Notes: generated by a model not told the origin, from the sequence alone. A DNA stretch of 32,000 nucleotides from an uncultured Oscillospiraceae bacterium (GCA_900759385.1 CAAEUZ010000090.1:12672-44671), one strand, 5' to 3'; shown: positions 9,835-29,506, counted from the stretch's first letter. Numbers and translations are program-made.

Positions 9835-9910
<76 letters not shown>

Positions 9911-9944
9911 ATACTTTACCCCACGGGGTTTAACCCGTGGGGTG

Positions 9945-13831: not shown

Positions 13832-16800
13832 TTATTTCACGTTCTCACAGAACCGCTGAAGCATCGCCGCCGCCTGGGCCCTGGTCGCAGTGCCCTGCGG
13901 CACCAGCGTGGACTCCGTTACACCGGTGATGACGCCCTCGCCGCAAGCCCACTGCAGTGCGGACACGGCGTACTCGCTCACAGCGTCAAAGTCCGTAAAG
14001 CTGAGTATGTTAGTGCTCTCGCCTATAGACACGTCATAGCCCTTGTACTGCGCGTAGCGGTACAGAATCGCCGCGAACTGCTCACGGGTCACATCAGCGC
14101 CTGGCGCAAACTCCGTGTCGCTCACGCCGTTGACGATGCCCTCGCTGGCCGCCCAGCGGACGGCCTCGGTGTACCACTCGCCCTCCGCCACGTCGGTGAA
14201 CGGCAGCAGGTAATTCACCGCCGGCCCGCCGTCCAGGCGCCAGAGGATGGTCACCAGCTGTGCGCGGGTGACGGTGCCGTCCGGCGCAAAGCGCGCATCG
14301 CTCACGCCGTCCATCAGGCCGTTCTCGTAAACGTACACCACGCAGTCATAGAACCAGTCGCCGCTGTCCGCGTCGTCGAACGGCTCCCAGCCGGCGTAGA
14401 CGGTTTTGTCTTTGTCCATGTAAATCTCGTCTATGCTGCCCGTGAAGTCCTCGTCCGGGTACCAGCCCGCGAAGTCAAAGCCGCTCCGCTCGCTCAGGTA
14501 CTCGGTCAAATCAACCGTGGTGCCGGCGGGCACGCGCAGCTTGTCCAGCTCGCTGCCGCCGCGCGGCTCAAAGGTCAGCGTGACATACCGCGTGCCGGTG
14601 CCGCCGCCGGGGTTCCACGGCCAGTCCGGGTCAGGGTCAGGATCGGGGTCGTCGGAGGCCACTTCGCTGTGGAAATAGAAGCCGGAATCGACCGATTTGG
14701 TCACATCCGTGCTCGTGCTGAAGGGCGAACCGTCGATTTCCGGCGCGGTCTGGGCGTCAACGCCCGACCAGGCCCTTATCTGCGTCTCCGCCGCAGGGTC
14801 GATTACAACGGTGCCGCCATTCAAATCCATGCTGCCGATCGCGCCGGTTATGGTCACCGTGCCGCCGGTAATCAGCACATCCGCGCTGCCGTTGGCGGAC
14901 GCGGCCATTGCCCCGGCAGAATTCGTGCCAGATGCCGTGTTGTGCAAAGCCAGGCCGTAGCTGGCCCGGGTATCCGGCGCACCGGTAAAGCTGCCGCCCT
15001 CGGCGGTAAGCTCTCCGCCATTGACGGTCAGCCCGGCTGCAGCGATGCCGACGCTGTTCGCGTTATCAGCGCCCGCGGCGGTCACTGTGCCGCTGTTGAC
15101 AATTACTCTGGACGCCGCCAAGATACCGACGCTGTTCTGCCCGGCCCCGCCGGCGGCATTCAGGCTGCCGGAACCGCTGACGGTTATATCGCCGCCGGCG
15201 TAGACGCCAAAGCTGAATGCTATTTCGTCCGTGCAGTCCGGCCCGGTGACGGTGTTCTCGCCGTTCAGCACTATTGTCAAACCGTTCTCACCGTAAATGG
15301 CCGCAGCTGCTTTGGTTTTATCATAACTATCATACTCAAACTTATGCCCGGCGGTGACGTTCACGCCGTTTAGCGTCAGCGCAGTGCCGTCCCATTTGAC
15401 GTTGTAGTTGCTCTCGTCGGCGCCATCGGCCGTGACGCTGCCGCTGCCGTCGTTAACAGCGTAAGCCGGCTCGCCATTAGCGCCGACGCTCAGTCCCACT
15501 CCGCCGACGTAGATGTCATAGTTGGTCGGAGGCTCGGGGCTGGGGCCTGACGCCCCTGTGCTGTGGAAGTATTTGGCGTCGGAGATGCGGTCGGTGATAT
15601 CGCCATCATCAGGAATGTCAATGCTTACCGTGTCGTTTGCGTTCTCTCCGGCCTCTACCGCGATCGCCAAGCCGTCCTCCGGGTTAATGACGACGCTGTT
15701 ATATGTGGCTATAGCAGCGTCTCTGCCCGTGGCCGTTACCTCGCCGCCGGAGATGGTGAGGTCATCTACATCGAGGCCGAAGCTCTCCTTACCCGTGCCT
15801 TTAGCCTCGCCTCCAGCAGCGTTGAGCATACCCCCGGAAATTTCAAGGTCCGCGTCGGCATAAATGCCGCTGCTGTAAGCGTAGCTGCCGCTCCCGGCAG
15901 CGGTAGCATCACCGCCAGTGGCCGTTACCTTGCCGCCGGAGATGGTGACATCAACGGCGTTAATACCCTCACTGCAGGCGTCTGCACCTTCGCCGTTGGC
16001 TGTGGCCGAGCCGCCCTCGGCCGTTACCTCACCGTCGGTGATTTTGATTTCAAAAGCATTAATACCATAGCTTTCCGCGTCATTGCTGCCGGACGTGGCC
16101 GTGCCGCCCTTGGCCGTTACCTCACCGTCGGTGATTTTGATTTCAAAAGCATTAATACCATAGCTTTTCGCGTCATGGCTGACGGACGTGGCCGTGCCGC
16201 CGGTGACGTTCAGTGTGCCGCCGCCGGAGATGGTGAACATGGTATTTACCTCACCGCGGATGCCGTAGCTCCAGCCATCCTGCGTGTTGCTCGGCCCGGT
16301 GACGGTGTTCTCGCCCACCAGCACAATGGAAACGCTGTCATCCGGCTCAGAACTGCTCAGCCACGTGTAGATAGCGGCGCTTTTATACGCGCCCTGCGTT
16401 ATTTTCGCGTTGTTCAGCGTCAGGGTGCTGCCGTCCCACTTGATGTTGTAGTTGTCGTCATCCGGCACAGTCTCAAGGAGGTGCACCTCGCCGTTGACCG
16501 TTGTCGCGTAAGCGGGAGCATCCTCGCTGCCGCTCAGGCCCACGCCGCCAACGTAGATTTCATGCTCGGGCAGAGTAATGGTGATTTTTAGGTATTTATC
16601 TGTACGATTTTCATAGTCACCTTCATCTTTGACTTCAATCGCACCCAAGCCGCCCTTATTCTCGCCAGCCATGACCTCAACTTCCGCGACCGTGGCGGCG
16701 GGATAAATTCTGTAGTTGTCATTGCCGGTGTTAACGCCAACGGCCTGAGTCCCGCCCCAAGCTGTGACCGTACCGCCGGATATGCTGACACCTGCATTAA

Positions 16801-17851
16801 AGCTGTTTCCACAGAGGCCGTAGCTTTTTGCGCCGTCCGTGACTTCGCCGCCCGTGGCCGTGACCGTGCCGCCCGTGGCCGTGACCTCGCCGCCGGATAT
16901 GCTGATACCGGTAGGCACACCTCCGCTGCTGCCGTAGATGCCGCAGCTGACAGCTTCGTCCGATGAGACCTTTCCGCCCGTGGCTGTGACGTTGCCGCCG
17001 GTGATGGTCACTCCGGTTTTGCCACTTTCATCTTTAACGGTTTTATATGTGCCGCAGATGCCGTAGCTGCTGCCGCCGGCCTCGCCGCCGATCGCTTCGA
17101 CCGTACCGCCGCTTATGTTGACGCTGCCATCATCTGCACAGATGCCGCAGCTGTCGCCGCCGGCCTCGCTGCCCGTCGCTTCGACCGTACCGCCGCTTAT
17201 GGTGACGATGCCTTCATATGCTTGGATGCCGTAGCTGCTGCCGCCGGCCTCGCCGCCGGTCGCGGTGACGTCGGCATCCTCAACTGTTACATCACCGCCC
17301 GCATAGATGCCATAGCTGGATTTATATTCGGCCTCGCCGCCGCGGGCGGTGACGGTGGCACCCTCAACTGTGACATTACCGCCCGCGTAAATGCCATAGC
17401 TGGCGTCATCTATGGCATTACCGCCGCTGACCGCCAAAGTTCCGCTGCCGCTTATGGTGATGTCGCCTTTAGATTCAATGCCGCGGCTGCTCCCGGGAGA
17501 GTTCGTTCTGGTAACAGTATTGGCGCCCATCAGCTCAATCTTCAGGTTGCCGGTGCAGGAGATGGCAGCTCTGCTATCAACACCCTCATCGTATATAATT
17601 TTCGCACCGTTGAGCGTCAGAGTCTCGCCGTCCCACCTGATGTTCCAAGGGTCTGTGTCGGGATTAATAGGGGTAATTGCACCCGTTTCCGCGTCCGTCG
17701 TGGCGTAGGCAGGATTGTCCTTGCTGCCCGGCACATAATATCCGCCGATTGAGATAGACACCCCATCCTCATCCGCCGCCAATGCAGCTGCGGGGAGCAG
17801 AGACACTATCAGGCACAGGCACATAAGCGCCGCGAAAAGTCGTTTTCTCAT
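13832..17851 (-). CDS. 1339-aa cell-surface protein: signal peptide, three super-modules of Gly-rich beta-helix-like repeats, a DP-repeat linker, a Listeria-Bacteroides (Flg_new) repeat, and three C-terminal SLH domains
   Basis: MRKRLFAALMCLCLIVSLLPAAALA signal peptide. There are many GGxAxxxSYGI repeats. The Flg_new-like segment is YVTLTFEPRGGSELD...FAGWY, and three FTD...W(Y)...GI..G SLH units follow. SD GGAGGAGGA upstream. Confidence 0.9.
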   Translation of the reverse strand: MRKRLFAALMCLCLIVSLLPAAALAADEDGVSISIGGYYVPGSKDNPAYATTDAETGAITPINPDTDPWNIRWDGETLTLNGAKIIYDEGVDSRAAISCTGNLKIELMGANTVTRTNSPGSSRGIESKGDITISGSGTLAVSGGNAIDDASYGIYAGGNVTVEGATVTARGGEAEYKSSYGIYAGGDVTVEDADVTATGGEAGGSSYGIQAYEGIVTISGGTVEATGSEAGGDSCGICADDGSVNISGGTVEAIGGEAGGSSYGICGTYKTVKDESGKTGVTITGGNVTATGGKVSSDEAVSCGIYGSSGGVPTGISISGGEVTATGGTVTATGGEVTDGAKSYGLCGNSFNAGVSISGGTVTAWGGTQAVGVNTGNDNYRIYPAATVAEVEVMAGENKGGLGAIEVKDEGDYENRTDKYLKITITLPEHEIYVGGVGLSGSEDAPAYATTVNGEVHLLETVPDDDNYNIKWDGSTLTLNNAKITQGAYKSAAIYTWLSSSEPDDSVSIVLVGENTVTGPSNTQDGWSYGIRGEVNTMFTISGGGTLNVTGGTATSVSHDAKSYGINAFEIKITDGEVTAKGGTATSGSNDAESYGINAFEIKITDGEVTAEGGSATANGEGADACSEGINAVDVTISGGKVTATGGDATAAGSGSYAYSSGIYADADLEISGGMLNAAGGEAKGTGKESFGLDVDDLTISGGEVTATGRDAAIATYNSVVINPEDGLAIAVEAGENANDTVSIDIPDDGDITDRISDAKYFHSTGASGPSPEPPTNYDIYVGGVGLSVGANGEPAYAVNDGSGSVTADGADESNYNVKWDGTALTLNGVNVTAGHKFEYDSYDKTKAAAAIYGENGLTIVLNGENTVTGPDCTDEIAFSFGVYAGGDITVSGSGSLNAAGGAGQNSVGILAASRVIVNSGTVTAAGADNANSVGIAAAGLTVNGGELTAEGGSFTGAPDTRASYGLALHNTASGTNSAGAMAASANGSADVLITGGTVTITGAIGSMDLNGGTVVIDPAAETQIRAWSGVDAQTAPEIDGSPFSTSTDVTKSVDSGFYFHSEVASDDPDPDPDPDWPWNPGGGTGTRYVTLTFEPRGGSELDKLRVPAGTTVDLTEYLSERSGFDFAGWYPDEDFTGSIDEIYMDKDKTVYAGWEPFDDADSGDWFYDCVVYVYENGLMDGVSDARFAPDGTVTRAQLVTILWRLDGGPAVNYLLPFTDVAEGEWYTEAVRWAASEGIVNGVSDTEFAPGADVTREQFAAILYRYAQYKGYDVSIGESTNILSFTDFDAVSEYAVSALQWACGEGVITGVTESTLVPQGTATRAQAAAMLQRFCENVK
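16021..16206. repeat. Two tandem 93-nt (31-codon) units inside the SLH-protein gene
   Basis: 16021..16113 and 16114..16206 are identical over the first ~55 nt and differ at only ~3 positions over ~88 nt. They encode ...SYGINAFEIKITDGEVTA(K/E)GG... Confidence 0.9.
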
Positions 17852-18459: not shown

Positions 18460-18472
18460 CTTATTCCCACTC
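18460..18472. repeat. attL core: displaced copy of the guaA 3' end (CTTATTCCCACTC)
   Basis: Identical to 28489..28501, which encodes ...EWE-stop of guaA on the minus strand. Confidence 0.8.
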
Positions 18473-18574
18473 AAGTCACGGCGCAGTATTCATCGTGAAT
18501 ATACGCACTTTTAATTCGCTTTTTACGCATTTAATCCACCTTATCTGTCTTATACACGACGTCCGCGGAATTTT

Positions 18575-18592
18575 TGTAGCCAAAGTGTAGCC
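18575..18592. repeat. Left arm-type repeat pair TGTAGCCAAAGTGTAGCC
   Basis: Two TGTAGCC copies phased by 11 bp. It matches 28401..28418 at 16 of 18 positions in the same orientation. Confidence 0.7.
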
Positions 18593-18643
18593 ACTCGAAT
18601 TCACCTCAAAACCAGCCGAAATTACTGCAAAGGAGTAAGTACC

Positions 18644-18820
18644 ATGAGCAAACTCATATCCCGCGAGTTTAACATTGACACCGCCTGCGTCGAGCTGCGC
18701 TATGCCGGTGGTAGCGGCATAAATATCTACTGTCCAGGTGTTGAGGACAGCTTCGACGCCACGCCGGCCATGCGCACTGAGATGGACCGGCTTATAGTAT
18801 GCAGGGATGGTACTGTATGA
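18644..18820 (+). CDS. 58-aa hypothetical protein at the island left end (MSKLISREFNIDTACVELRYAGGSGINIYCPGVEDSFDATPAMRTEMDRLIVCRDGTV)
   Basis: Hand translation; the ORF is below the track cut-off. AAAGGAG SD lies 8 nt before the ATG. Confidence 0.5.
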   Translation: MSKLISREFNIDTACVELRYAGGSGINIYCPGVEDSFDATPAMRTEMDRLIVCRDGTV

Positions 18821-18921
18821 TATGTTGGAGGGATGTCTCAGAGGAACATCAGGAATACACAGCTTAGATAGTTAGTCTCAGCGCAAGGGTTTTGCCCTTG
18901 TAAGGAGCCGCAGCGACGCAA

Positions 18922-18953
18922 AACATCCCGGATGCTCAGGCACCCGGGATGTT
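18922..18953 (-). terminator. Weak putative terminator after the LacI-family gene
   Basis: AACATCCCGG-12 nt-CCGGGATGTT followed on the minus strand by TTGCG. The T-run is short. Confidence 0.35.
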
Positions 18954-19005
18954 AAACGCACATACATGGTAACTATGTATAGAAGTGCACCCTTGCGCGC
19001 CGACG

Positions 19006-20004
19006 TCAAATCAGGTGGGTGCTTTTTCCTACAATCAGGCTCGGCAGGGTGGTAAAACTCTGAACTCGCAGCTCGGGCTTTTTCAGTTCCTGCAAAAGCT
19101 GCTTTGCGGCCACGCGACCCATGTCGCGCACGTCTATCTGCACCAGAGTCGGTTCGGGCACAATGAGCGGGCTGTACGGGTAACGGTCAAAAGTTATAAG
19201 CTGCACGCCGTCAGGGATACTCACTCCGAGCTCATGCGCCGCCTCGGCGAAGGCAAAGGCGAGCAGGTTGCTGCTGCACACCACGGCATCCGGCCTGTCC
19301 GGAGCCGTCAGCAGCTCCAAAGCGGCGGCGCGCCCAGATTGCAGCGTGCCGTCCGTGTGCTTTATCCAGTTCTCGCGATATTCGCAGCCATTCTCCTCCG
19401 CAGCGGCGCGGAAGCCCGCAAGACGCTCATTGGATATGTCATCCGTCTCCAGCGCGCCGATAAAAGCCACGTCACGGCAGCCGCACCCTGAGAGGTGCTC
19501 GACCGCGATACGCCCTCCGAGGGCGTTGTCCGTATCAACCCAGTTTATGCGCGTGTCGCTCGGATGGCCTATCACTATGTGGGGGAATTTCCGGGTGACA
19601 AGGAGCTGATGGATTGGCTTTGTCAGCGCGCCGCCATGGACTATGAGCCCATCTGCGGCTCGCGACAGCATTATCTGCTCCACATCCGTAATCGTCGCGT
19701 CCAGCAGCATCAGGCTGTACCCTTTTTTGCTCAGTGCCTCCTGAACCCCGCACATGATGTCAAAAAGGTGCGGATTGGTGTACGGCTCAAACTCTTCGAG
19801 CTTGGCCAAGAAAGCGATGCAGCGCGCGCTTTTCCTGGCAAGCCCAGCAGCGCGGCTGTTTGGGGCATACTCAAGCCGCCGCATTATTTCCTTTACCCTC
19901 AGCGTTGTCGCCTCGGATATACCGGGCATGTCGTTTATTACCCTGCTGACGGTGGAAATACTGACCCCGGCTTCACGGGCGACGTCTTTAATGGTAACTG
20001 GCAT
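19006..20004 (-). CDS. LacI-family transcriptional regulator
   Basis: N-terminal HTH MPVTIKDVAREAGVSISTVSRVIN with a periplasmic-binding-protein-like core. GGAGGG lies 6 nt before the ATG at 20004. The upstream ATG at 20010 abuts the SD. Confidence 0.9.
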   Translation of the reverse strand: MPVTIKDVAREAGVSISTVSRVINDMPGISEATTLRVKEIMRRLEYAPNSRAAGLARKSARCIAFLAKLEEFEPYTNPHLFDIMCGVQEALSKKGYSLMLLDATITDVEQIMLSRAADGLIVHGGALTKPIHQLLVTRKFPHIVIGHPSDTRINWVDTDNALGGRIAVEHLSGCGCRDVAFIGALETDDISNERLAGFRAAAEENGCEYRENWIKHTDGTLQSGRAAALELLTAPDRPDAVVCSSNLLAFAFAEAAHELGVSIPDGVQLITFDRYPYSPLIVPEPTLVQIDVRDMGRVAAKQLLQELKKPELRVQSFTTLPSLIVGKSTHLI

Positions 20005-20073
20005 TTTCATCCCTCCACAGCATTATAGTATAACGTTTTCATAAATAAATCAAGAGAAATATTGCAATTTCTA

Positions 20074-20102
20074 TTGACTTACACAAATATTGTAGTTATA
20101 CT
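20074..20102 (+). promoter_or_regulatory. Promoter of the sugar ABC / GH13 operon
   Basis: TTGACT, 17 nt, TATACT. Confidence 0.65.
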
Positions 20103-20158
20103 TCAAATCAAGAGGTGCGTATTGTACAAGTTTTTCGCTTATAGCAAGCATTATCTAA

Positions 20159-20172
20159 GTAAAACGTTTTAC
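20159..20172. promoter_or_regulatory. LacI/CcpA-type operator: perfect 14-bp palindrome GTAAAACGTTTTAC
   Basis: It lies between the -10 box and the SD of the binding-protein gene and fits the central-CG palindrome typical of LacI-family operators. A weaker copy, GTATAACGTTTTCA, sits at 20028..20041 next to the lacI-family gene start. Confidence 0.7.
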
Positions 20173-20200
20173 TATATTGATCAGAACGGAGGATGAAAAA

Positions 20201-21469
20201 ATGAAGAAATTCCTTGCCATACTGCTCAGCGCCCTGATGCTTATGACACTGCTCGCAGCCTGCGGAACCTCAAACGAACCCAGCGGTGAGAGCGCCGCGC
20301 CCGCATCGGAAGCGCCGGAGTCGGAAACGCCGGCTGAACCCGTAGAGCTTACAGTCTGGCACGACAACGACGAAGCCCTCATGCAGGCGATGGCCGACGC
20401 CGCAAACGCAAAGCTCGAGGGGACGGGTGTGACGCTTACCTTTGAAAAGCGCACCGGCCTTTCCGACCAGCTCAAGCTCTACGGCGGCGACGCGGCCAAC
20501 GGCCCCGACATGTACCTCTGGGCGCATGACAGTCTCGGCACATTTGTGGCGATGGACATTCTCGAACCGCTCACTAACCTCATTGACGAGAGTGTACTTG
20601 CCGACGACCTGCCGCTGACCGTTGAAGCCGGTCAGATAGACGGCACTCAGTACCTGCTCCCCGTGTACTTCGAGACTCTGCTCTTCCTCTACAACAAGGA
20701 CCTCTGGCAGGGCGACATACCCGCGACGACCGAGGAGCTATATGAGTACATGGTAGCAAACACAGATACCGCCGCCGGTACATACGCAGTCGTCAACCAG
20801 CACTCGACTTCGTATAACGTCTCGCCCTTTATAAACGGTTTCGGCGGGTACATACTCGACGATGATGGCAACCCGGGACTCAACGACCCCAAAACCATCG
20901 AGGCTGTGGAGTACAACAAGAAATTCGCCGACCTGGAAGCCGACGGAGATTACAACACTGTCACGACCCTCTTCAATGAGGGCAAGGCTCAGGCCATAAT
21001 CGGCGGGCCTTGGCTCGTCGCTGGGATTCGTGCCGCTGGCATTGACCTCGGTGTGGCGTCGCTCTCCGACATGACTCTTCCCAACGGAGAGCCGCTGGCC
21101 CCCTTCTCCGGCGTCCAGGGCATCGGCGTCATGAAAGTAGCCGCGGAGACGAAGGGCGACGCGATTGCGCTGGCTCTTGAGGCTCTCGCTTCGCCCGAGG
21201 TGGGCACCGCCCTCGCGAAGGCCGGTGGATGCGCCCCGGCGAACTCGCTCTCTTATGATGACCCGGACGTTGCTGCCGACGAGATAATAGCGGCGATTGA
21301 GCACACGGCAGATACCGCCCAACCCATGCCTAACGCTGCAGAGATGAACGTTATGTGGGGTCCGGTTGACAGCATGCTTGCCGCTGTCAACAAAAACGGC
21401 CAGGACGCGGCGTCTGCTGCTGAGGAAGCTCAGGCCGCGGCTCTTCAGGCCATAGCGGATATGCAGTGA
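20201..21469 (+). CDS. MalE-like extracellular solute-binding lipoprotein (maltodextrin-type ABC substrate-binding protein)
   Basis: Lipobox LLAAC, and the MalE-like DMYLWAHDSLG and GGPW motifs. GGAGGA SD lies 7 nt before the ATG at 20201. Confidence 0.85.
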   Translation: MKKFLAILLSALMLMTLLAACGTSNEPSGESAAPASEAPESETPAEPVELTVWHDNDEALMQAMADAANAKLEGTGVTLTFEKRTGLSDQLKLYGGDAANGPDMYLWAHDSLGTFVAMDILEPLTNLIDESVLADDLPLTVEAGQIDGTQYLLPVYFETLLFLYNKDLWQGDIPATTEELYEYMVANTDTAAGTYAVVNQHSTSYNVSPFINGFGGYILDDDGNPGLNDPKTIEAVEYNKKFADLEADGDYNTVTTLFNEGKAQAIIGGPWLVAGIRAAGIDLGVASLSDMTLPNGEPLAPFSGVQGIGVMKVAAETKGDAIALALEALASPEVGTALAKAGGCAPANSLSYDDPDVAADEIIAAIEHTADTAQPMPNAAEMNVMWGPVDSMLAAVNKNGQDAASAAEEAQAAALQAIADMQ

Positions 21470-21484
21470 GAATGGATGAATTAA

Positions 21485-21512
21485 GGGGCGGCGGCTTCGC
21501 CGCCCCATTTTT
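21485..21512 (+). terminator. Intra-operon hairpin (partial terminator / mRNA stabiliser) after the binding-protein gene
   Basis: GGGGCGGCG-gctt-CGCCGCCCC followed by ATTTTT. The next gene's SD (GGAGG) follows immediately. Confidence 0.65.
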
Positions 21513-21524
21513 GGAGGCCTTGCC

Positions 21525-22409
21525 ATGAGCCTTAGACGCAAATTGAAGCCCTGGTGCTGGTGCGTACCGGCGGTGCTGCTCATACTCATCATCATCGTCT
21601 TTCCCATCATCTACACCGGGTACATTTCACTTACCAATATGAACCTCTATCACTGGCAGGACTACGAGGTGATAGGGCTGGACAACTATGCCCGCGCGCT
21701 TTTCAAGTTTGACTCAGGATTTCTGTCCGCTCTTGGTACGACGCTGCTCTGGACCGTGCTCAACATGGTCATACAGCTTGCGCTGGGCTTTCTCATAGCC
21801 CTGGGGCTCAACGCACCCAAGCTGAAGCTCAGCCGATTGTACAAGACGCTACTGATGGTGCCCTGGGCGATGCCGGCGTATATTTCCATCCTGCTTTGGC
21901 GCGTAGGAATGTTCAACACCGAACTCGGTCTGCTAAACAAGTGGATCACGGCGTTGGGATTTGAAAAGGTGGACTTCCTCGCTACCAACGGCATAGCCTT
22001 TGTGTCCTGTCTCGTGCTCAATCTCTGGATGGCGCTGCCGTTTATGATTTCCACGATCGACGGAGCTCTGCAGAGCGTTGACCGCAGCTTGTATGAGAGC
22101 GCCACGCTCGACGGCGCAGGATTCTGGACACGCACATGGAAAATAACAATTCCAAGTATACGGCCCGTAATAGCCCCTGCCGCCGTTATGACGACGTTCA
22201 TAACTTTTAAACAGTTCGATATCATCTATCTGCTCACGCAGCAGCGCGGCTACATGACCGGCGCGACGCTTAACACAGTGATAACCTACGTCCACCAGAA
22301 CGCCTTCGTCTCGAACAATTACGGCCTGTCCAGCGCAGTGAGCATGCTGCTCTTCGTGATTATAATCATCTTCTCGCTGGCCACCAACCGAAGCCTGAGG
22401 GAGGACTGA
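21525..22409 (+). CDS. Carbohydrate ABC transporter permease (MalF-like)
   Basis: Six TM helices and the EAA loop YESATLDGAGFWTRTWKITIPSIRP. Confidence 0.9.
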   Translation: MSLRRKLKPWCWCVPAVLLILIIIVFPIIYTGYISLTNMNLYHWQDYEVIGLDNYARALFKFDSGFLSALGTTLLWTVLNMVIQLALGFLIALGLNAPKLKLSRLYKTLLMVPWAMPAYISILLWRVGMFNTELGLLNKWITALGFEKVDFLATNGIAFVSCLVLNLWMALPFMISTIDGALQSVDRSLYESATLDGAGFWTRTWKITIPSIRPVIAPAAVMTTFITFKQFDIIYLLTQQRGYMTGATLNTVITYVHQNAFVSNNYGLSSAVSMLLFVIIIIFSLATNRSLRED

Positions 22410-22411
22410 GC

Positions 22412-23254
22412 ATGAAACGTAAAACTAAAGAGCGCATAGGGTATATAGCCCTCAATATTGCCTTCATTCTCCTGTGCCTGGTCACGCTGATACCGATATA
22501 CTACGCGGTAAACGTGTCCTTCTCCGGGCCGGGCAGCTCGCTCTCCGGGGATTTTTCGTTTCTTCCAGAGAACCCCTCGCTGGAAAATTACCGCGCCATC
22601 CTTTTTGACGAGCCATTTTTGCTATGGCTCAAAAATTCGCTGCTGCTTAGCGTGGGTACAGTCGCCATAGCCATGCTCTGCGCCGTGACGGCGGCCTACG
22701 CCTGCTCTCGCTGGAGATTCAAAGGCCGCAGGCCACTGCTCATGGCTTTACTCGTACTCAACGCCTTCCCGCAGGTGCTCTCGCTCTTTGCATATTACCG
22801 CATACTGCGTCTTGCCGGGCTGCTGAATTCCCACATAGGGCTGATGCTCATATACGCGGGGAGCATGTGTGTCTTTGCCGTCTGGAACATGAAGGGATAC
22901 TTCGATTCCATACCGGTCGAAATAGAGGAGGCGTCAAAGATAGACGGTGCAAACGACGCTCAGATGATATGGCGTATCGTCCTGCCGCTTGCGAAACCGG
23001 CCATCGTCGTCACCTGTGTCATGGTGCTCATAACCGTCTGGAACGAGTACCTGTTTGCGACTACCTTCCTGCTGGACAGCGATTACTATTCGCTCTCGGC
23101 GGGGCTTTATCAGCTGCAAAGCAACGACTACACCCGCTCTTGGCCGCTGTTCACGGCGGCAAGCATACTCGCGTCGATACCGCTGCTGCTGATTTTCTTC
23201 AAGATACAAAAATACATGGTCTCCGGTCTCACCGCCGGCGGCGTGAAAGGATAA
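22412..23254 (+). CDS. Carbohydrate ABC transporter permease (MalG-like)
   Basis: EAA loop EEASKIDGANDAQMIWRIVLPLAKP. The start lies 2 nt after the preceding stop. Confidence 0.9.
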   Translation: MKRKTKERIGYIALNIAFILLCLVTLIPIYYAVNVSFSGPGSSLSGDFSFLPENPSLENYRAILFDEPFLLWLKNSLLLSVGTVAIAMLCAVTAAYACSRWRFKGRRPLLMALLVLNAFPQVLSLFAYYRILRLAGLLNSHIGLMLIYAGSMCVFAVWNMKGYFDSIPVEIEEASKIDGANDAQMIWRIVLPLAKPAIVVTCVMVLITVWNEYLFATTFLLDSDYYSLSAGLYQLQSNDYTRSWPLFTAASILASIPLLLIFFKIQKYMVSGLTAGGVKG

Positions 23255-23256
23255 AC

Positions 23257-24927
23257 ATGAAAAAGGAAGCGATATTTCACCGGCCAATGAGCGAATACGC
23301 CTTTGGCCTGGACGAGGACACCACAGTATTCCGGCTGCGCAGCGCTCCCGGTGACGTCGAGCGCTGCACGCTCTGGTACGGCGACACTTCAAGTCCGGAG
23401 ACACCTGTGCCTGTATTTCATGCGGAAATGGCGCTCAAGTATCACGGTGAAAACTGCGACTGGTGGGAGACCGAGCTGCGCGGTACTTTTCACCGACTCT
23501 ATTACTACTTTGAGCTCACGGGCGACGAGACGCTGTATTACTCCGGTGAGGTATTTTTCACTCAGCCAAGTGCAGAGCGCGCTGAATACTTCAAGTTCCC
23601 ATTCAACCACCGCGCGGATATCGCCCGCGTCCCTGATTGGGTGTCGGATGCCGTGGTGTACAATATTTTCCCCGACAGCTTTGCAAGTTCCCGGCGCGCG
23701 ATTGCCGGAAGTGGGACCGAAAAACATACCAGCGGCGCTCTTTCCCGCTCGCGTCTCGGCGGCACGATAAACGGCATACGCGAAAATCTCGATTACATAT
23801 CCGCTCTCGGAGCCAACTGTATCTATCTGAATCCCATCTTTGCCGCCGGGCAGTATCACAAGTACGACACGATAGACTACCTACACATTGACCCCTGCTT
23901 AGGTACGGACGAGGATTTCCGCGCTCTTGTGGACAAGTGCCACGCACGCGGGATACGCGTCATACTTGACGGCGTGTTCAACCACTGCGGCGCACAGTTT
24001 TTTGCCTTCCGCGACGTGCTCGAAAGGCAGGAGCGCAGCCGCTACGCAAGCTGGTTTTACCGTCTGCAGTTTCCCGTTGCATACCCCGAAGCAGGCGAAC
24101 GGCCAAATTATGAATGCTTCTGTTATGAACGGCTTATGCCCAAGCTTGATACGTCAAACCCAGAAGTATGCGACTACCTCTGCGCCGTCGGTGAGCACTG
24201 GCTGCGCGAATTTGACACAGACGGATGGCGTCTCGACGTAGCAGACGAGCCGAACGACGGATTCTGGAGGGAGTTTCGCCGGCGCTGCAAATCCGTCAAG
24301 AGCGACGCGCTGCTCATAGGCGAAGTTTGGGGCAGCGCAAGGCATTGGCTAAGCGGAGATATGCTCGATTCCACCATGAACTACGACTTCCGCAATCACT
24401 GCCGGCACTTTTTCGCCGAGGGCAGCATCGACGCGCGCACCTTCGCCGGACGTTGCTCGGATATGCTCATGCGCTATAAACGTCAGATTGCCGCAGCACA
24501 GCTGAACCTGCTTGACAGCCACGATGTCAGTCGCTTCCTTAATCTATGCAGAGGCGATGTGCGGCGCTTGAAGCTGGCAGTTATGTTCATGTGCTGCTTT
24601 CCGGGTATGCCCTGTGTATTCTATGGCGATGAGCTTGGCGTCTCCGGCATAGACGAATTGGATTTCCGGCGCGCCATGCCCTGGCAGAGCGGAGACGCGG
24701 AGCTGCTGGAGTTTTACCGCGACGCGATATCCCTGCGACGAAATCACCCCGCGCTTCGTCACGGCGAGCTGCGCTTTCTCCGCGCCGAGCCGGGTGAACG
24801 CGTGCTTGTGTTTGAGCGAAAATTGCCAAGTGATAAGCTGATAGTAGCTATCAATTCAGCAGAAACCGAGTATAATTATTCCGGTCATAAGATCCCGCCG
24901 CTCTCATGGGTAATAGTAGAGCAATAA
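23257..24927 (+). CDS. Intracellular GH13 alpha-glucosidase of the neopullulanase / cyclomaltodextrinase / maltogenic amylase type
   Basis: The four GH13 regions are present: DGVFNH, GWRLDVADE, GEVW and LLDSHD. There is an N-terminal IFHRP...FRLR domain and no signal peptide. The true start is the ATG at 23257 (MKKEAIFHRP, AAAGGA SD). The 130 extra codons of ORF 22867.. overlap the malG-like gene. Confidence 0.9.
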   Translation: MKKEAIFHRPMSEYAFGLDEDTTVFRLRSAPGDVERCTLWYGDTSSPETPVPVFHAEMALKYHGENCDWWETELRGTFHRLYYYFELTGDETLYYSGEVFFTQPSAERAEYFKFPFNHRADIARVPDWVSDAVVYNIFPDSFASSRRAIAGSGTEKHTSGALSRSRLGGTINGIRENLDYISALGANCIYLNPIFAAGQYHKYDTIDYLHIDPCLGTDEDFRALVDKCHARGIRVILDGVFNHCGAQFFAFRDVLERQERSRYASWFYRLQFPVAYPEAGERPNYECFCYERLMPKLDTSNPEVCDYLCAVGEHWLREFDTDGWRLDVADEPNDGFWREFRRRCKSVKSDALLIGEVWGSARHWLSGDMLDSTMNYDFRNHCRHFFAEGSIDARTFAGRCSDMLMRYKRQIAAAQLNLLDSHDVSRFLNLCRGDVRRLKLAVMFMCCFPGMPCVFYGDELGVSGIDELDFRRAMPWQSGDAELLEFYRDAISLRRNHPALRHGELRFLRAEPGERVLVFERKLPSDKLIVAINSAETEYNYSGHKIPPLSWVIVEQ

Positions 24928-24942
24928 AACCTCGCAAGTGGG

Positions 24943-24962
24943 GCGAGTGGCTAGCCACTCGC
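24943..24962. repeat. Perfect 20-bp palindrome GCGAGTGGCTAGCCACTCGC, which shares TAGCCACTCG with the left arm region
   Basis: Read directly from the sequence. It lies at the junction between the sugar cassette and the int/rep module. Confidence 0.6.
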
Positions 24963-25005
24963 GAAAAACACCTTGTTGGGATTTTATCCCAAACCCTAAA
25001 AACTC

Positions 25006-25037
25006 AGAACAGCCCGACCGTGCGGTCGGGCTGTTCT
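25006..25037. terminator. Bidirectional terminator between the convergent GH13 and RepA-like genes
   Basis: AGAACAGCCCGACC-gtgc-GGTCGGGCTGTTCT. It is followed by TTTC on the + strand and TGAGTTTTTAGGG on the minus strand. Confidence 0.75.
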
Positions 25038-25076
25038 TTCGGCGGCGCACCCTTACGGGCGCTTATTTTATCCTCC

Positions 25077-25140
25077 GCGACGGTTGCAACGGTTGCGACG
25101 GTTAAATTGGCAGTGCTCAGGCTATCGTTGCAACCGTCGC
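25077..25140. repeat. 15-bp inverted repeat (GCGACGGTTGCAACG / CGTTGCAACCGTCGC) plus ACGGTTGC direct repeats spanning the 3' end of the RepA-like gene
   Basis: Read directly from the sequence. The arms are at 25077..25091 and 25126..25140. ACGGTTGC occurs twice in tandem, then GACGGTT. Confidence 0.7.
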
Positions 25141-26223
25141 AAGCGTCGCGCTCTCCGATTCCGCGACTACAACAGCGCCGGTCAGCCTGATGCGCCGTCC
25201 CTCGTGCCGAGCCAGGCTCTCGTATTTCACATTATACTCGTCGAGCAGCCGTCCCGCATTTACGTTCAAATGCCGCGTCAGCCGGTTGACCGCCATGTCC
25301 GAGCCCAGCGCGAGCGCCAGCTCCGAGGGGCTTCCCTCCCAATGACCACCGCGCTCTTCTACAAGTCTTCTCACAGAATCGAGCACCGCGTCGGGTGGCT
25401 TCTTCCACAACTCTGTCTCGGCGCTCTCAAGGTTCCACACAAGGCTGTCACGCTCTTTCACAATATGCAGCCGCTGGTCGGGCTGGTCGCGCCCGACAAC
25501 ATCCAGCGTCGCCGTGAGGTCGGTGCGCTTTTCCTTGCGCATCAGCAGCGCTCCGTCAGCGCAGCCCAGCAGCCCGTTTGTCCCCGATAGCATCTCGAAG
25601 CAGTCTCCTGCGGCCTGCTTTCTCGTGTGATGTACCGCCAGCACGCAGAGCTTGTGCTTGTCCGCAAAAGATTTCAATCGCGTCACGAGTTCATAGTCGC
25701 TGCCGTAGCTGTAGTCCCTCGACGCCTCCCTCACCTTTTGCAGCGTGTCGAGCACGATGAGCTTGGTGTCCGGGTGCTCGCGGACGAAGTATTCAAGCTG
25801 CCCGTCAAGGCCGTCGGAAAGCAGCTTGGCTTGGACAGAGAAGAACACGCTGCCTTCAGCGGCCACGCCGAACATCCGCGACATTCGCCCCTGCAAACGA
25901 CCGTAGTCGTCTTCCAGTGCGAGATAGAGCACGGAACCCTGATGTACGTCGTAACCCCACAGCGGCTGGCCTGTGCCGACGTGATACGCTATCTGCGCAA
26001 CGAGAAACGACTTGCCTATTTTCGGCGCACCAGCGAGAAAGTACGCGCCCGCGTACAGCAGACCGTCTATTATAGACGGCCTGCTTTCGTACACGTTGTC
26101 AAAGAGTTCATTCAACGATACAGTATGCAGATAATCCGGGTTGTTCATCTGTCTCATCTTCCTGAGCAACCTGTTCATATCCATTTCTTCAGATTTACAT
26201 TCGCTCATTTGACTCACCGCCAA
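25117..26223 (-). CDS. RepA-like / RecA-fold AAA ATPase (AAA_25-type replication helicase of small mobile elements) with a C-terminal winged-helix-like region
   Basis: Walker A GAPKIGKSF, Walker B LIVLDTL, and VLAVHHTRK. The start is either the TTG at 26223 or the ATG at 26208. Either overlaps the end of the upstream HTH gene. Confidence 0.8.
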   Translation of the reverse strand: MAVSQMSECKSEEMDMNRLLRKMRQMNNPDYLHTVSLNELFDNVYESRPSIIDGLLYAGAYFLAGAPKIGKSFLVAQIAYHVGTGQPLWGYDVHQGSVLYLALEDDYGRLQGRMSRMFGVAAEGSVFFSVQAKLLSDGLDGQLEYFVREHPDTKLIVLDTLQKVREASRDYSYGSDYELVTRLKSFADKHKLCVLAVHHTRKQAAGDCFEMLSGTNGLLGCADGALLMRKEKRTDLTATLDVVGRDQPDQRLHIVKERDSLVWNLESAETELWKKPPDAVLDSVRRLVEERGGHWEGSPSELALALGSDMAVNRLTRHLNVNAGRLLDEYNVKYESLARHEGRRIRLTGAVVVAESESATLATVATIA

Positions 26224-26398
26224 TCTGCATCCCGTAAAACTTCTTCTGAAAGTATTGAACCGGACACTTGCCAGAAACCGTTATGTATCCCATCCCTTTT
26301 AACTCCCGATTCATGTCCCTGACGATTTGATACGCCTTACTCCTGCTTACTCCCATGATTTCTGCCACATCGGCTGCCGTGATAAACTGCGCTCTCAT
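26195..26398 (-). CDS. 67-aa helix-turn-helix protein, excisionase-like (HTH_17/MerR-type)
   Basis: MRAQFITAADVAEIMGVSRSKAYQIVRDMNREL. GGAGG lies 5 nt before the ATG at 26398. The longer ORF start at 26614 would run through the promoter region. Confidence 0.75.
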   Translation of the reverse strand: MRAQFITAADVAEIMGVSRSKAYQIVRDMNRELKGMGYITVSGKCPVQYFQKKFYGMQIGGESNERM

Positions 26399-26482
26399 TT
26401 TGCCTCCATTATTTAATTTGTGCATCTCTAATGCGCTCATTTCCACCAGTCTTTCATAATGCGCACTTTTAATACGTCTTGC

Positions 26483-26511
26483 ATTATACGCTTTATGCGC
26501 ATTCTTGTCAA
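26483..26511 (-). promoter_or_regulatory. Consensus sigma-A promoter driving the xis-like/repA-like genes
   Basis: On the minus strand: TTGACA, 17 nt, TATAAT. The palindrome ATGCGCAT sits inside the spacer. Confidence 0.7.
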
Positions 26512-26534
26512 TATCATTTTTGAGAAATACGTAC

Positions 26535-26563
26535 TTGCAATTCGCTTTTGTTTCTGCTATACT
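26535..26563 (+). promoter_or_regulatory. Promoter of the XRE-regulator/integrase genes
   Basis: TTGCAA, 17 nt, TATACT. GAGGTGA SD precedes the ATG at 26583. Confidence 0.6.
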
Positions 26564-26582
26564 CATCTCGAGGTGAATTTGA

Positions 26583-27260
26583 ATGGCACATTTCGATGAA
26601 TCAGATGATTTCAACTATGAGGCACAAAGCTCTGAGTCATACGACGCGAAGGAAATCGGTCGCCGAATAAAACTGGCTCGGAAGGCAAGACGTATAAGCC
26701 AGAAAGAGCTGGCTGAAATGCTCAACCGCTCACTCAGGACAATCCAGAAATATGAGAGCGGTGATATTGAAGTTTCAGTCGCGGCACTTGTTTCCGTCTG
26801 CCAAGCGCTGCGCGTCCCGCTTTCGTATCTGGTGGGTCTTGGGACACGCAAGGCTCTTATCACGAGTCTTGCCGACGTAATGGACTTCCTGTTCATGCTT
26901 GAAAAAGTGAAAGAACTCCACTTTGCAATCGAAGTTGAAAAGCCACCAAAGGACAGGGACTGGAGATGCTCCGTCTCTTTCAGCGGCACAGGTACGAACG
27001 CCAAACACAATGCCGCGCTCTGCCTTCTGCTTGAACAGTGGCAAGACCAACGCGAAAAACTCGCCGCGGACAAAATTACGGATAAGGACTATTCCGACTG
27101 GAAAGACCAGACCATATCCTACTGCTCCTTTGAGCGTATTGAACCTGTCGGGAGCAAAAATTCTGATCCCATGGGGCGTCCGTCCGATGAAGCATCCGAA
27201 GAAACAAATGTTCTCTCCGGGGATGAAATGGCAGCGTTGCGTAATCTGCTGAGTAAATAA
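26583..27260 (+). CDS. XRE-family HTH regulator (cI/Stl-like repressor candidate) with a ~140-aa C-terminal domain of unknown function
   Basis: HTH_3 core IGRRIKLARKARRISQKELAEMLNRSLRTIQKYESGD. It is divergent from the xis/rep genes and lies directly upstream of int. Confidence 0.85.
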   Translation: MAHFDESDDFNYEAQSSESYDAKEIGRRIKLARKARRISQKELAEMLNRSLRTIQKYESGDIEVSVAALVSVCQALRVPLSYLVGLGTRKALITSLADVMDFLFMLEKVKELHFAIEVEKPPKDRDWRCSVSFSGTGTNAKHNAALCLLLEQWQDQREKLAADKITDKDYSDWKDQTISYCSFERIEPVGSKNSDPMGRPSDEASEETNVLSGDEMAALRNLLSK

Positions 27261-27303
27261 GCGAATTGAATACAGACCGTGACTTGGGAGAAAGGAGCGA
27301 TTC

Positions 27304-28379
27304 GTGTCAGTAACGAAGGACAGTAAAACAGACAAGTGGATGGCTCAGCTCCGTGTCAAGGATTGGACGGGCAAGGTCATCCACAAGAAAAAGCGCGGCT
27401 TCGCGACTAAGCGGGAGGCGCTGCAATGGGAAAGGGACTTCATAGCTCAGGCAAGCGCCAGCCTCGGCATGACGTTCAGGGACTTCATTGAGCTGTACAA
27501 ACAGGACATGGAAAAGCGGCTCAAGCCCTCGACCATCGCGGGCAAGAAATGGCTCATAGATTTGAAGATAACCCCTTTCTTCGGCAAGATACCTCTCAAT
27601 GAAATTAAGCCCACAGACATACGCCGTTGGCAAAATGGCCTGAGCAGCCATCGCGATGGGAACGGGAAACCATACTCCCAGACCTATCTGCGTTGTATCA
27701 ACAATCAGCTCACAGCGATTTTCAACTATGCGGTAAAATACTACGGCCTGAAAGAAAACCCCTGTCACAAGGCTGGGAGCATGGGTAAGAAAAACGCCGA
27801 CGAATGTTGTTCTGGACAAAGGACGAATTCTCTCAGTTCATAGCTGCACTCAAAGAGCGCCCCGCGTCCTACGCAGCGTTTATGACCCTGTACTACACGG
27901 GAATGCGCGAAGGAGAACTGCTGGCGCTGACTCCTGCCGACATAGACTTTGAAAAATCCATCATCATAAACAAGAGCTACCAGCGGCTCGGCAAAGAGGA
28001 CGTAATCTCAACGCCAAAGACCGAAAAGAGCAGACGCACAGTGACCATACCCTCCGTTCTTAGCGACTGTCTCAGGGAGTATATAGGCAAGTGCTATGGG
28101 CTTCAACCGACTGACCGGCTGTTCCCGTACACGAAAAGCTTCCTGTATCGCGAGATGGAATACGCCTGCAAGACCAGCGGCGTCAAGCGCATCCGCGTAC
28201 ACGACATTCGTCACAGCCACGCGGGCCTGCTTGTAGAAATGGGCTGTTCCCCGCTGCTCATAGCCGAGCGGCTCGGCCATGAGCGCGTCCAGACTACAAT
28301 GGAAACCTACAGCCATCTCTACCCCAACAAACAGGCCGAAGTAGCACGTCAGCTCGACGGCATATTCGCCGCAGGCTGA
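27304..28379 (+). pseudogene. int: Tyrosine recombinase / integrase (Tn916/phage-integrase type), split by a 1-nt frameshift near 27804
   Basis: ORF 27304..27843 carries the N-terminal SAM-like/core-binding part. ORF 27804..28379 carries the catalytic domain (R in YTGMREGEL, HDIRHSHA, Y in ETYSHLY). The two frames join as ...KKNADE|MLFWTKDEF if one A is restored in GAATG. Confidence 0.85.
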
Positions 28380-28400
28380 TGGCTACAACATCCTGCAAAG

Positions 28401-28418
28401 TGTAGCCAATTTGTAGCC
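28401..28418. repeat. Right arm-type repeat pair TGTAGCCAATTTGTAGCC, plus an inverted GGCTACA at 28381..28387
   Basis: It has the same 11-bp phasing and orientation as 18575..18592. It lies between the int stop and the attR core. Confidence 0.7.
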
Positions 28419-28420
28419 GC

Positions 28421-28469
28421 TAAAAATAGCAAAATCCCTGAAATGCCTGTAAGTACAGGCATTTCAGGG
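28421..28469 (-). terminator. Element-borne terminator now serving guaA
   Basis: CCCTGAAATGCCTGT-4 nt loop-ACAGGCATTTCAGGG (15-bp perfect stem). On the minus strand it is followed by ATTTTGCTATTTTTA, starting 20 nt after the guaA stop. Confidence 0.75.
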
Positions 28470-28488
28470 ATGTAAGGTATATTAAATT

Positions 28489-28501
28489 CTTATTCCCACT
28501 C
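28489..28501. repeat. attR core (CTTATTCCCACTC), containing the guaA stop codon
   Basis: Identical to 18460..18472. Confidence 0.8.
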
Positions 28502-29473
28502 GATCGTTGCGGGCGGCTTGGGGGTCAGGTCGTAGAGGACGCGGTTTACGCCGGGGACTTCGTTTGTTATGCGCTCGGTCAGGCGCTTCATCAGCGGCCA
28601 GGGGAGTTCTTCGACCTCGGCGGTCATGGCGTCGCGGGTGTTCACGGCACGGATGACGACCGGCCAGGCGTCCACGCGCTTGCCGTCGCGCACGCCGGTG
28701 CTGGTCACGGGCGGGACAACGGTGAAGTACTGCCAGACCGTCTTGTCCAGGCCCTCGCGGGCGAACTCCTCGCGCAGGATGGCGTCGCTCTCGCGCACGG
28801 CCTCGAGCCTGTCGCGGGTGATGGCACCGACGCAGCGCACGCCCAGGCCGGGGCCCGGGAAAGGCTGGCGGTAGACCATGGAGTCAGGCAGGCCCAGGGC
28901 CTTGCCGACCACGCGCACCTCGTCCTTATAGAGGAACTTGAGAGGCTCGACCAGCTCAAAGTGCATATCCTCCGGCAGACCGCCGACGTTGTGGTGGCTC
29001 TTTACAGGCCCGGACTCCACGATGTCAGGATAGATGGTGCCCTGGGCGAGGAAGCCGATGCCCTCCAGCTTGCGGGCCTCCTCCTCAAAGATGCGGATAA
29101 ACTCCTCGCCGATAATCTTGCGTTTGCGCTCCGGGTCGGCCACGCCGGCGAGCCTGTCCAGGAAGCGGTCAACCGCATCCACATATGTAAGGTTCGCGCC
29201 CAGCTGGTTGCGGAACACCTCTATGACCTGCTCGCTCTCGCCCTTGCGCATCAGCCCGTGGTTGACGTGCACGCACTCGAGCTGCCTGCCCACCGCCTTG
29301 ATGAGCAGCGCCGCCACGACGGATGAATCCACGCCGCCGGAGAGCGCGAGCAGGACTTTGCCCCCGCCGATCTGCGCGCGCAGCGCGGCGGTCTGCTCGG
29401 CAATGAACGCCTCGGCCAGCTCGGGAGTGGTGATACGCTCCATTTCAGGTCTTTTGTTTGATGAATTAGTCAT
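28490..29473 (-). CDS. guaA: GMP synthase, ATP-pyrophosphatase (PP-loop) plus dimerisation domains only; no glutamine amidotransferase domain
   Basis: PP-loop [11 protein letters not shown], the C-terminal ...KPPATIEWE, and 327 aa in total. GGAGG lies 5 nt before the ATG at 29473 (MTNSSNK). Confidence 0.9.
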
Positions 29474-29506
29474 AACAGCCTCCAAAATTGGTAATTATAT
29501 GTCCGG

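Follow-up and report, generated by a model that had tools for sequence, protein, structure and literature searches.

Mobile elements of several kinds use the gene guaA as an attachment site. Among them are some Staphylococcus aureus pathogenicity islands (SaPIs), which belong to the phage-inducible chromosomal islands (PICIs). The RepA proteins of two elements of Proteobacteria, GIsul2 and the IncP island, are members of the AAA_25 helicase family. SCCmec is an integrative element that carries no transfer genes and encodes a self-loading replicative helicase, Cch. Among integrative mobilizable elements (IMEs), the guaA site is used by ATE-1, GIsul2, and the IncP island (PMC5704250, Table 1), and RepA-type replication genes are listed in IMEs (PMC5704250). 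GIsul2 and the IncP island encode RepA for theta plasmid replication, and for GIsul2, which has no relaxase, dependence on a helper plasmid is assumed (PMC5704250, sections 2.2 and 3.2, Table 1). Tandem accretion with cis- or trans-mobilization is established for IMEs (PMC5704250, section 2.3), and relaxase-free mobile islands are a recognised category (PMC5704250, section 3.2). Here we consider a 10-kb island at guaA in a 32,000-nucleotide stretch of DNA of an uncultured Oscillospiraceae bacterium (GCA_900759385.1 CAAEUZ010000090.1:12672-44671), which as a whole is referred to below as the window. A sequence-only reading had described the region 25077-28488 as organised like a PICI. We think it likely that this region serves an element of a large guaA-targeting IME family as its core for integration, switching, and replication, in a copy that has no mobilization module and a broken integrase gene.

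The guaA-targeting family

The island occupies 18473-28488 (10.0 kb) between exact 13-bp repeats, CTTATTCCCACTC. The attR core (28489..28501) is the 3′ end of guaA and overlaps its stop codon, and the attL core (18460..18472) is a copy of the last 12 guaA bases plus one base. Reading inward from guaA, the tyrosine integrase gene int (27304..28379, plus strand; Arm-DNA-bind_4, SAM_3, and Phage_integrase domains in Pfam) and the gene of an XRE-family repressor (26583..27260) lie on one strand, and xis (26195..26398) and rep (25117..26208) run divergently on the minus strand and end at a set of repeats. The integrase, the repressor, the divergent consensus promoter, the Xis-like helix-turn-helix (HTH) gene, the AAA ATPase, and the repeats are all where the sequence-only reading had placed them, and the int-repressor | xis-rep-ori layout that it proposed is real, as judged from the map of open reading frames (ORFs), Pfam, and a promoter scan. 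Its four-gene core is sound as well. What it overlooked is a 1-bp frameshift that splits int and a further backbone gene at the far end of the island, encoding a 58-aa DUF6061 protein (18644..18820, plus strand; PF19537, E 7.2e-16). The 13-bp end repeats and the TGTAGCC pairs near them were likewise absent from that reading. In many relatives the DUF6061 gene is found right after rep or the relaxase gene (type A, see below) or inverted at the far end (type B).

Just inside both island ends there are TGTAGCC pairs with 11-bp spacing. The attL-proximal arm (18473..18643, plus strand) contains an operator-like 23-mer at 18501-18523 and the pair at 18575-18592, precedes the DUF6061 gene, and is 71% identical to the far ends of the type B relatives L004, L005, and L009, beside their att copy. 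The attR-proximal arm (28380..28488) contains the pair at 28401-28418 and an 18-bp perfect hairpin (28434-28471) that supplies the guaA terminator; it is 77-92% identical to the equivalent position in type B relatives. With int, xis, 13-bp att repeats, and arm-type sites, the island thus has an integration and excision module of its own, as is proper to IMEs, with int disrupted in this copy. In keeping with the same category, no conjugation or type IV secretion genes were found in the island or in the relatives' elements examined.

Rep relatives number at least 7957 database proteins, and at least 576 of the 600 candidate genome stretches examined were confirmed to encode one. Among the matches listed, the hosts are mostly Oscillospiraceae, Flavonifractor, Pseudoflavonifractor, Lawsonibacter, Faecalibacterium, and Butyricicoccus. 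Labelling of ORFs with reference proteins in 140 loci reveals two architectures, both adjoining guaA, both 8-11.5 kb long and flanked by a duplicated GAGTGGGAATAA, the same duplication that forms the island's att cores. Type A is (XRE<-) xis-int-NikA-like-rep, and type B, to which the window belongs, is int<-XRE<- | xis->rep. The full backbone, present in L041-L043 and L055, reads rep-ori-orfQIPY-Mob_Pre-orfTGLT-DUF6061-HTH_26, orfQIPY being a small ORF after the repeats that starts MKNVQIPYDLF. The family backbone ends in DUF6061 or TnpV and is accompanied by variable cargo; the relaxase is either Mob_Pre (MOBV) or MobA/MobL. The survey of what lies beyond rep that the sequence-only reading had called for therefore yields a relaxase, DUF6061 or TnpV, or cargo.

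It is the relaxases that place the island. Of the 70 loci that have a classified architecture and at least 3.5 kb of sequence after rep, 41 encode a relaxase in the next 4 kb (36/60 of type A and 5/10 of type B). Loci with the type B layout and Mob_Pre include L036, L037, L039, L040, L044, L048, L070, L095, L096, and L098; Pfam detects Mob_Pre in two of them (L048, E 4.9e-30; L070, E 6.9e-34) and MobA_MobL in L013. Relatives with this core at the same guaA site, in which rep is 55-66% identical to that of the window (71% in one partial match), have a relaxase after it in most cases. No terminase, capsid, or packaging gene turned up in any relative context examined with Pfam, PHROGs, and Pfam gene context. 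These data do not support the PICI affinity suggested earlier, nor is a novel type of element needed, since the same core at the same site occurs with relaxases; by the logic of the sequence-only reading itself, which took a relaxase as the mark of an ordinary IME, the core belongs to the IME world. The likeness to PICIs does not show kinship and is better described as a common logic of excision, replication, and carriage by a helper.

Some members of the family appear in public phage collections under the name 'Bacteriophage sp.', a point of importance for virome annotation. Two such GenBank entries from human faeces, L012 (MT838829.1) and L013 (MT836902.1), turned out to be small type A IMEs without phage genes: the former has the order int-NikA-like-rep-Mob_Pre, the latter reads XRE|xis-int-NikA-like-rep-MobA/MobL-TnpV. 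We take this faecal set to come from a study of virus-like particles. IMG/VR holds just 26 contigs with rep more than 50% identical, and the plasmid collection gave distant or unannotated matches only. No published description of the guaA family was found in the literature on AAA_25 proteins with integrase and excisionase, on DUF6061, or on the att core. IME_Rho_tet (PMC12904643) was considered as a possible member and set aside, being a serine-recombinase-based element of a different family. It appears that an abundant and apparently unnamed guaA-targeting family moves genes for sugar use, restriction-modification, defence, and resistance among gut Clostridia.

Switch and replication module

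The regulatory region (26459..26563) contains two promoters placed back to back, as found by the promoter scan. P(xis-rep) (26511..26483, minus strand) is TTGACA-17-TATAAT, a 12/12 match to the sigma-70 consensus; P(XRE-int) (26535..26563, plus strand) is TTGCAA-17-TATACT with an extended TG. Operator-like repeats lie at 26459-26481 and 26527-26549, and the stretch 26525-26597 is kept in type B relatives. The 23-mer inside attL, upstream of the DUF6061 gene, resembles these two promoter-side copies, which suggests that the repressor may also act there or on the attP region of the excised circle. The xis gene encodes a 67-aa ICEBs1-Xis-like excisionase, with E 2.9e-15 against NCBIfam NF047858 (ICEBs1 excisionase; 55.7 bits, below the curated cutoff of 100 bits), E 1.5e-23 against phrog_989 of PHROGs, and a weak match to HTH_17. 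Integrase, divergent master repressor, and excisionase together make up a regulatory module of the PICI kind, although int is frameshifted.

The repressor (225 aa) consists of an N-terminal HTH (HTH_3, E 1.1e-11 in Pfam) and a C-terminal alpha/beta domain. The HTH resembles those of ImmR and C-proteins and is matched by Foldseek to the ImmR DNA-binding domain 7t8i with a target-normalised TM-score of 0.90. The C-terminal domain is modelled as alpha-beta-beta-alpha-alpha and is kept in 27 homologues, to as low as 31% identity; this conservation among relatives argues against a fast-diversifying, hypervariable sensor of the Stl type. Foldseek matches of the repressor model are confined to the HTH part, the one to Stl (6h4c) being weak and restricted to the HTH region, and the C-terminal domain gives nothing meaningful in a profile search against PDB sequences and no Pfam match when isolated. 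The earlier view that this domain is unrecognisable thus stands as regards profile matches, while a conserved alpha/beta domain can now be described. The ORF map and Pfam reveal neither a gene between int and the repressor gene nor a peptidase domain that would represent an ImmA-type anti-repressor protease. In two homologues (P0146 and P0124) the first half of the repressor is identical to the window protein and is followed by the +1 frame of the same DNA, so copies of the window clade have frameshifts in differing core genes.

Rep is a 363-aa helicase of superfamily 4 (SF4, DnaB/RepA-like; AAA_25, PF13481, E 6.4e-28) whose gene starts with an ATG at 26208 and overlaps the end of xis by 14 nt. 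The Walker A motif GAPKIGKS is conserved, and the RecA-type core is matched by Foldseek to DnaB, T7 gp4, Twinkle, and RSF1010 RepA (1nlf); Pfam and Foldseek agree that Rep has what defines an RSF1010 RepA-like helicase, a RecA-fold core with Walker A. The HMM searches of the core proteins proposed earlier (Pfam, PHROGs, and NCBIfam) thus assigned domains to them and found no relaxase. In the structure model of Rep (mean pLDDT 72), residues 279-349 are arranged as H-E-H-H-E-E with block-mean pLDDT of 83-92, which we read as a winged helix. The tail that follows consists of translated repeats: translation of rep continues, in the window clade, into the first of the two repeat arms, hence the odd ...ATLATVATIA end. 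The C-terminal domain has no meaningful match in a profile search against PDB sequences and no Pfam match when isolated. The ATPase C-terminus, earlier said to have no recognisable motif, remains without a profile match, but its predicted fold and the origin of its tail are now apparent. Neither Rep nor any other part of the island has a primase domain recognised by Pfam.

The putative replication origin (25077..25149) is composed of three direct copies of a 9-mer iteron, GCRACGGTT (GCGACGGTT GCAACGGTT GCGACGGTT, 25077-25103), a 19-nt spacer that contains the rep stop codon, and three inverted copies (25123-25149). The sequence past the rep stop codon was extracted from 89 related loci, and almost all of them have the same design of three 9-mers, a spacer of 19-45 nt, and three inverted 9-mers. 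In about 73 of 83 distinct related loci the array begins within about 10 nt of the stop codon. At least 24 of 37 symmetric positions are complementary in 49/82 loci vs. 0/82 shuffles, the best shuffle reaching 21. The iteron unit is clade-specific, GCGACGG or GTGACGG, and both arms switch together. Positions 16 and 25 from the centre, which are 9 nt or one unit apart, are complementary in just 24-33% of loci, and such a non-complementary position in every ninth place points to repeated protein sites with a free position rather than a continuous stem. The array is kept whether a relaxase, DUF6061, or cargo follows rep, and with or without a preceding NikA-like gene; being independent of all of these, it travels with rep.

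Coupling to rep, covariation, and the predicted winged helix all fit a Rep-specific origin, and the earlier suggestion of an origin of this kind has fared well: the repeats are conserved beside rep and their unit covaries in both arms. The array was also considered as a terminator of rep, which it does not resemble, having no T run and being followed by a separate canonical terminator, and as an origin of transfer (oriT) or a set of sites for the NikA-like protein, which is at odds with its persistence where there is no relaxase or NikA-like gene and with its constant position next to rep. When Rep proteins are grouped by iteron class (48 GCGAC and 26 GTGAC), a single column separates the classes. 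It corresponds to residue 311 of the window protein (A vs. K), inside the winged-helix-like domain; this is suggestive, the association being confounded by phylogeny. Compared with the replication module of PICIs, a helicase and an adjacent iteron array are present, the helicase superfamily is different, and there is no primase domain. The helicase and the iterons make the module a clean candidate for a self-loading replication initiator.

From homology, gene context, covariation, and the structure model, a cycle can be proposed for the family. The XRE protein would repress P(xis-rep). Upon derepression, Xis and Int would excise the island at the 13-bp core of the guaA 3′ end, as homology and the att repeats suggest. 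Rep, by means of its SF4 helicase core and its own winged helix, would bind the inverted iterons, open the DNA, and load itself, steps that we infer from the coupling of rep and repeats, the covariation, and the model, and host primase and polymerase would then copy the excised circle. Full-length relatives encode a MOBV or MOBQ relaxase right past the origin, and this enzyme would pass the circle to a helper conjugative element.

Mobility of the copy in the window

The window copy has no such relaxase. No relaxase, NikA-like, TnpV, terminase, or capsid gene was found in the island with Pfam, PHROGs, NCBIfam, and tblastn using the relatives' relaxases, nor a relaxase or MOB domain in the ATPase or the small ORFs, and in tblastn the window showed no vestige of relaxase, NikA-like, orfQIPY, or TnpV genes. 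An oriT is not recognisable from the sequence either. The earlier statement that this copy is free of transfer and packaging genes is therefore borne out. It is rather likely that the window copy and its close relatives lost the mobilization module, with cargo in its place. In the window this cargo (19006..24927) comprises genes, all identified by Pfam, of a LacI regulator (19006-20010, minus strand) and, on the plus strand, an ABC sugar-binding protein (20177-21469), two permeases (21525-22409 and 22412-23254), and a GH13 alpha-amylase-family enzyme (23257-24927). The same element, cargo included, is found in L010 and L011. L001 and L002 share no homology with the cargo: their similarity to the window ends about 150 nt beyond rep (at 24964 and 24973, respectively), after which L001 has different genes and L002 a third cargo. 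Between the window and L001, the identity is 95.9% for int, 96.2% for the XRE gene, and 91.2% for rep vs. 83.4% for guaA and 75.9% for DUF421. Core identity above that of the host flanks, together with the swapped cargo, indicates that the core moved between hosts even though it has no relaxase.

A 1-bp deletion in an A run (27803-27804) divides int into 27304-27843 and 27804-28379. At 27800-27807 the window reads GACGAATG, and the alignment gives GACGAAATG in the two closest relatives, L001, where int is intact (347 aa), and L010, which keeps the missing A and whose contig ends just past the site. The first base of L010, a metagenomic contig whose copy of the island is 95% identical, corresponds to window position 27828, about 25 bases beyond the frameshift, which may be a coincidence or reflect population heterogeneity at that spot. 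Aligned over some 8.5 kb with L011, a metagenomic copy of 98.5% identity, the window shows no more than about two net indel columns. Since the assembly is not rich in indels, the frameshift is probably real, and the island is probably immobilised in this genome, locked in place as a cargo island. The earlier idea of a decaying relic is partly right in that int is frameshifted. In this genome the island most likely amounts to a fixed vehicle of an operon for starch or maltodextrin-type utilisation.

Relatives without a relaxase are common (24/60 of type A and 5/10 of type B), and their backbone is 80-91% identical across hosts whose guaA genes are 67-84% identical. Their cargo is mostly restriction-modification and defence genes, and no relaxase family is among the 25 listed of the 46 Pfam families hit; some other relatives carry resistance genes. 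About 35 of the relaxase-less relatives outside the window clade have, at the position of the Mob_Pre module, a non-coding block of 160-240 nt that is 89-98% identical across genera (e.g., L015:11253-11490 and L005:3842-3997, as well as L030, L026, L014, L020, and L028). The block contains the hairpin CACAGAATGAAATTCTGTG and two tandem units of a GTGTG...CACAC hairpin followed by GCATTGCTTGCC. It has no Rfam match and may be an orphan oriT or a small RNA. An Rfam scan of the island itself gave only sub-threshold chance hairpin matches. Tandem arrays with a relaxase-bearing sibling occur in L004, L039, L048, and L141/L142, an array with a relaxase-less sibling in L028, and further arrays in L067 and L082. 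In L141 (8386-20660) and L142 (1836-14110), the element next to guaA is of type A and carries Mob_Pre together with a ribosomal-protection tet gene; it is followed by a window-clade copy (94% identity, 18 indels) whose int, XRE gene, and rep are each broken into fragments. As the contigs come from long reads, errors may account for some of the indels; beyond the window-clade copy there are SbcCD-like genes and a CRISPR-Cas locus of type III-A.

Having lost the mobilization module, the lineage would depend entirely on borrowed functions for its spread, with sibling IMEs in tandem at guaA as their most plausible source. We tentatively suggest, as a doubtful extension, that relaxase-less lineages, the window clade among them, are no wrecks but second-tier parasites, i.e., minimal excise-and-replicate cargo platforms that ride tandem sibling IMEs or their relaxases. 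If so, the siblings themselves would ride conjugative elements, and replication would raise the copy number of the circle while the helper is active.

An alternative that we regard as possible, though unlikely, is that the copy in the window is itself a functional relaxase-less hitcher, similar to a mobilizable genomic island (MGI) or a cis-mobilizable element (CIME), the frameshift being an error or complemented in trans, and transfer taking place by tandem co-excision or through the relaxase of a sibling or of an ICE that nicks an unrecognised oriT. The att sites are kept, a relaxase is missing, and mobile islands of this sort are established (PMC5704250, section 3.2); a core better conserved than the host flanks between species and combined with three different cargos, the frequency and cross-host conservation of relaxase-less backbones, and the guaA arrays, one of which includes a window-clade copy, would all be expected. 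However, tandem partners are seen in relatives and none in the window, where host genes directly follow attL, the conserved non-coding block of the other relaxase-less relatives is missing here, the frameshift sits in an otherwise clean assembly, and the window-clade copy of L141/L142 is riddled with indels.

The same core could also be seen as a minimal phage satellite resembling PICIs or phage-inducible chromosomal minimalist islands (PICMIs), in which a protein of a helper phage lifts XRE repression, the island excises and uses its own origin to replicate, and the helper packages it although it encodes no packaging or interference genes. The layout and the guaA site do resemble SaPIs, which also have a Rep-specific origin placed directly 3′ of rep; the repressor has a C-terminal domain in addition to its HTH and lacks an ImmA-type protease as partner; and a few relatives are found in IMG/VR and among the faecal 'Bacteriophage sp.' scaffolds, presumably obtained from virus-like particles. 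We nevertheless hold it to be improbable: no terS, capsid, ppi, or cpm-like gene exists in the element or any relative examined, relatives bear relaxases and NikA-like accessory proteins, the faecal scaffolds themselves are relaxase-bearing elements, the IMG/VR contigs are few against the confirmed genome stretches, and the C-terminal domain of the repressor is conserved, not diversified. Finally, the complete excision and replication core without transfer genes, for which SCCmec with its replicative helicase offers a precedent, might be taken for a new autonomous element, maintained solely by excising and replicating and spread with the help of neither conjugation nor phage, e.g., by transformation. 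Since the core is common to relaxase-bearing elements at the same site, no new category is needed, and nothing was found that supports non-conjugative transfer, so this appears very improbable.

Several points weigh against an IME core that has lost its mobilization module. The iteron spacer of the window is short and not AT-rich, unlike in many relatives, and the island encodes no primase. The window clade has neither a relaxase nor the non-coding block, and no candidate oriT was found in it. The short A run in which the int frameshift occurs leaves room for an assembly error, and the excess of core over flank identity could partly mirror differing selective constraints. The IME label is drawn from domain content and context, given that no published description of the family was found. 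With these points taken into account, our preferred reading remains a derivative within an IME family that carries cargo, has no relaxase, and probably has an inactive integrase.

Other features of the island and its surroundings are as follows. Between the GH13 gene and rep there is a bidirectional terminator hairpin (25006..25037), its perfect stem of 15 bp leading into a T run on the rep strand; the block kept with L001 and L002 includes it. A backbone segment with a terminator-like hairpin (18904..18994, minus strand) is 84.6% identical to L002:1919-2008, and since the L002 copy adjoins rep, not DUF6061, the entry points of cargo differed between the two elements. The G+C content is 0.46-0.59 inside the island vs. 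about 0.61-0.64 for most of the flanking DNA. The guaA gene itself (28490-29485, minus strand; GMP_synt_C in Pfam) encodes a stand-alone ATP-pyrophosphatase of 331 aa; there is no upstream glutamine amidotransferase domain, i.e., the GMP synthase is split, as in several related loci (324-342 aa). On the other side, 13832-17851 (minus strand) encodes a surface protein of 1339 aa in which SLH domains, beta-helix repeats, and a Listeria-Bacteroides repeat are recognised. This gene has many internal direct repeats of 84-93 nt and is just 88% identical in L010, as against 97-100% for the island. The genes for tRNA-Thr(GGT) and tRNA-Asp(GTC) (9835-10021, minus strand) are 8 kb from the island and are not its attachment site.

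Comparison with known systems

SaPIs and other Gram-positive PICIs (pri-rep-ori) share with the window the int-repressor | xis-rep order and a helicase-initiator gene that is immediately followed by an origin of its own, whose iterons form two opposed sets. The att core of SaPIbov1 presumably contains TTATTCCCACTCGAT. However, the window helicase is of a different superfamily, and primase, packaging, and interference genes are missing; PICIs are packaged by phages, whereas the window's relatives carry relaxases and are read as conjugatively mobilizable. The analysis thus assigns a PICI-looking island to its proper category. SCCmec differs in its serine recombinases (Ccr), its MCM-like or SF3-type helicase, and its orfX/rlmH attachment site. 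GIsul2 and the IncP island, which were compared by description only, are likewise inserted at the guaA 3′ end but belong to a different phylum and carry RepC together with TrbJ, TrbK, and TrbL.

ICEBs1 (int-immA-immR | xis) has the same divergent repressor and excisionase next to int, and both the Xis model and the ImmR HTH find their match in the window. The island differs from it in having no ImmA gene and no conjugation genes, in an Xis score below the family cutoff, and in a repressor with a 100-aa C-terminal domain that ImmR does not have. There is also a close likeness to the MOBV IMEs of Firmicutes, i.e., IMESag-rpsI, Tn4451 with TnpV/TnpZ, and ATE-1, the last two being likened to the window by description, not by sequence. 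These are small elements of 8-12 kb as well, and their tyrosine integrase also inserts into the 3′ end of a conserved gene. The relatives of the window share with them Mob_Pre, TnpV, and variable cargo including resistance and restriction-modification genes. The window copy differs in that it has no relaxase and no identified oriT, and the guaA family has, in addition, an iteron origin with its SF4 helicase and an XRE|Xis switch of the ICEBs1 kind.

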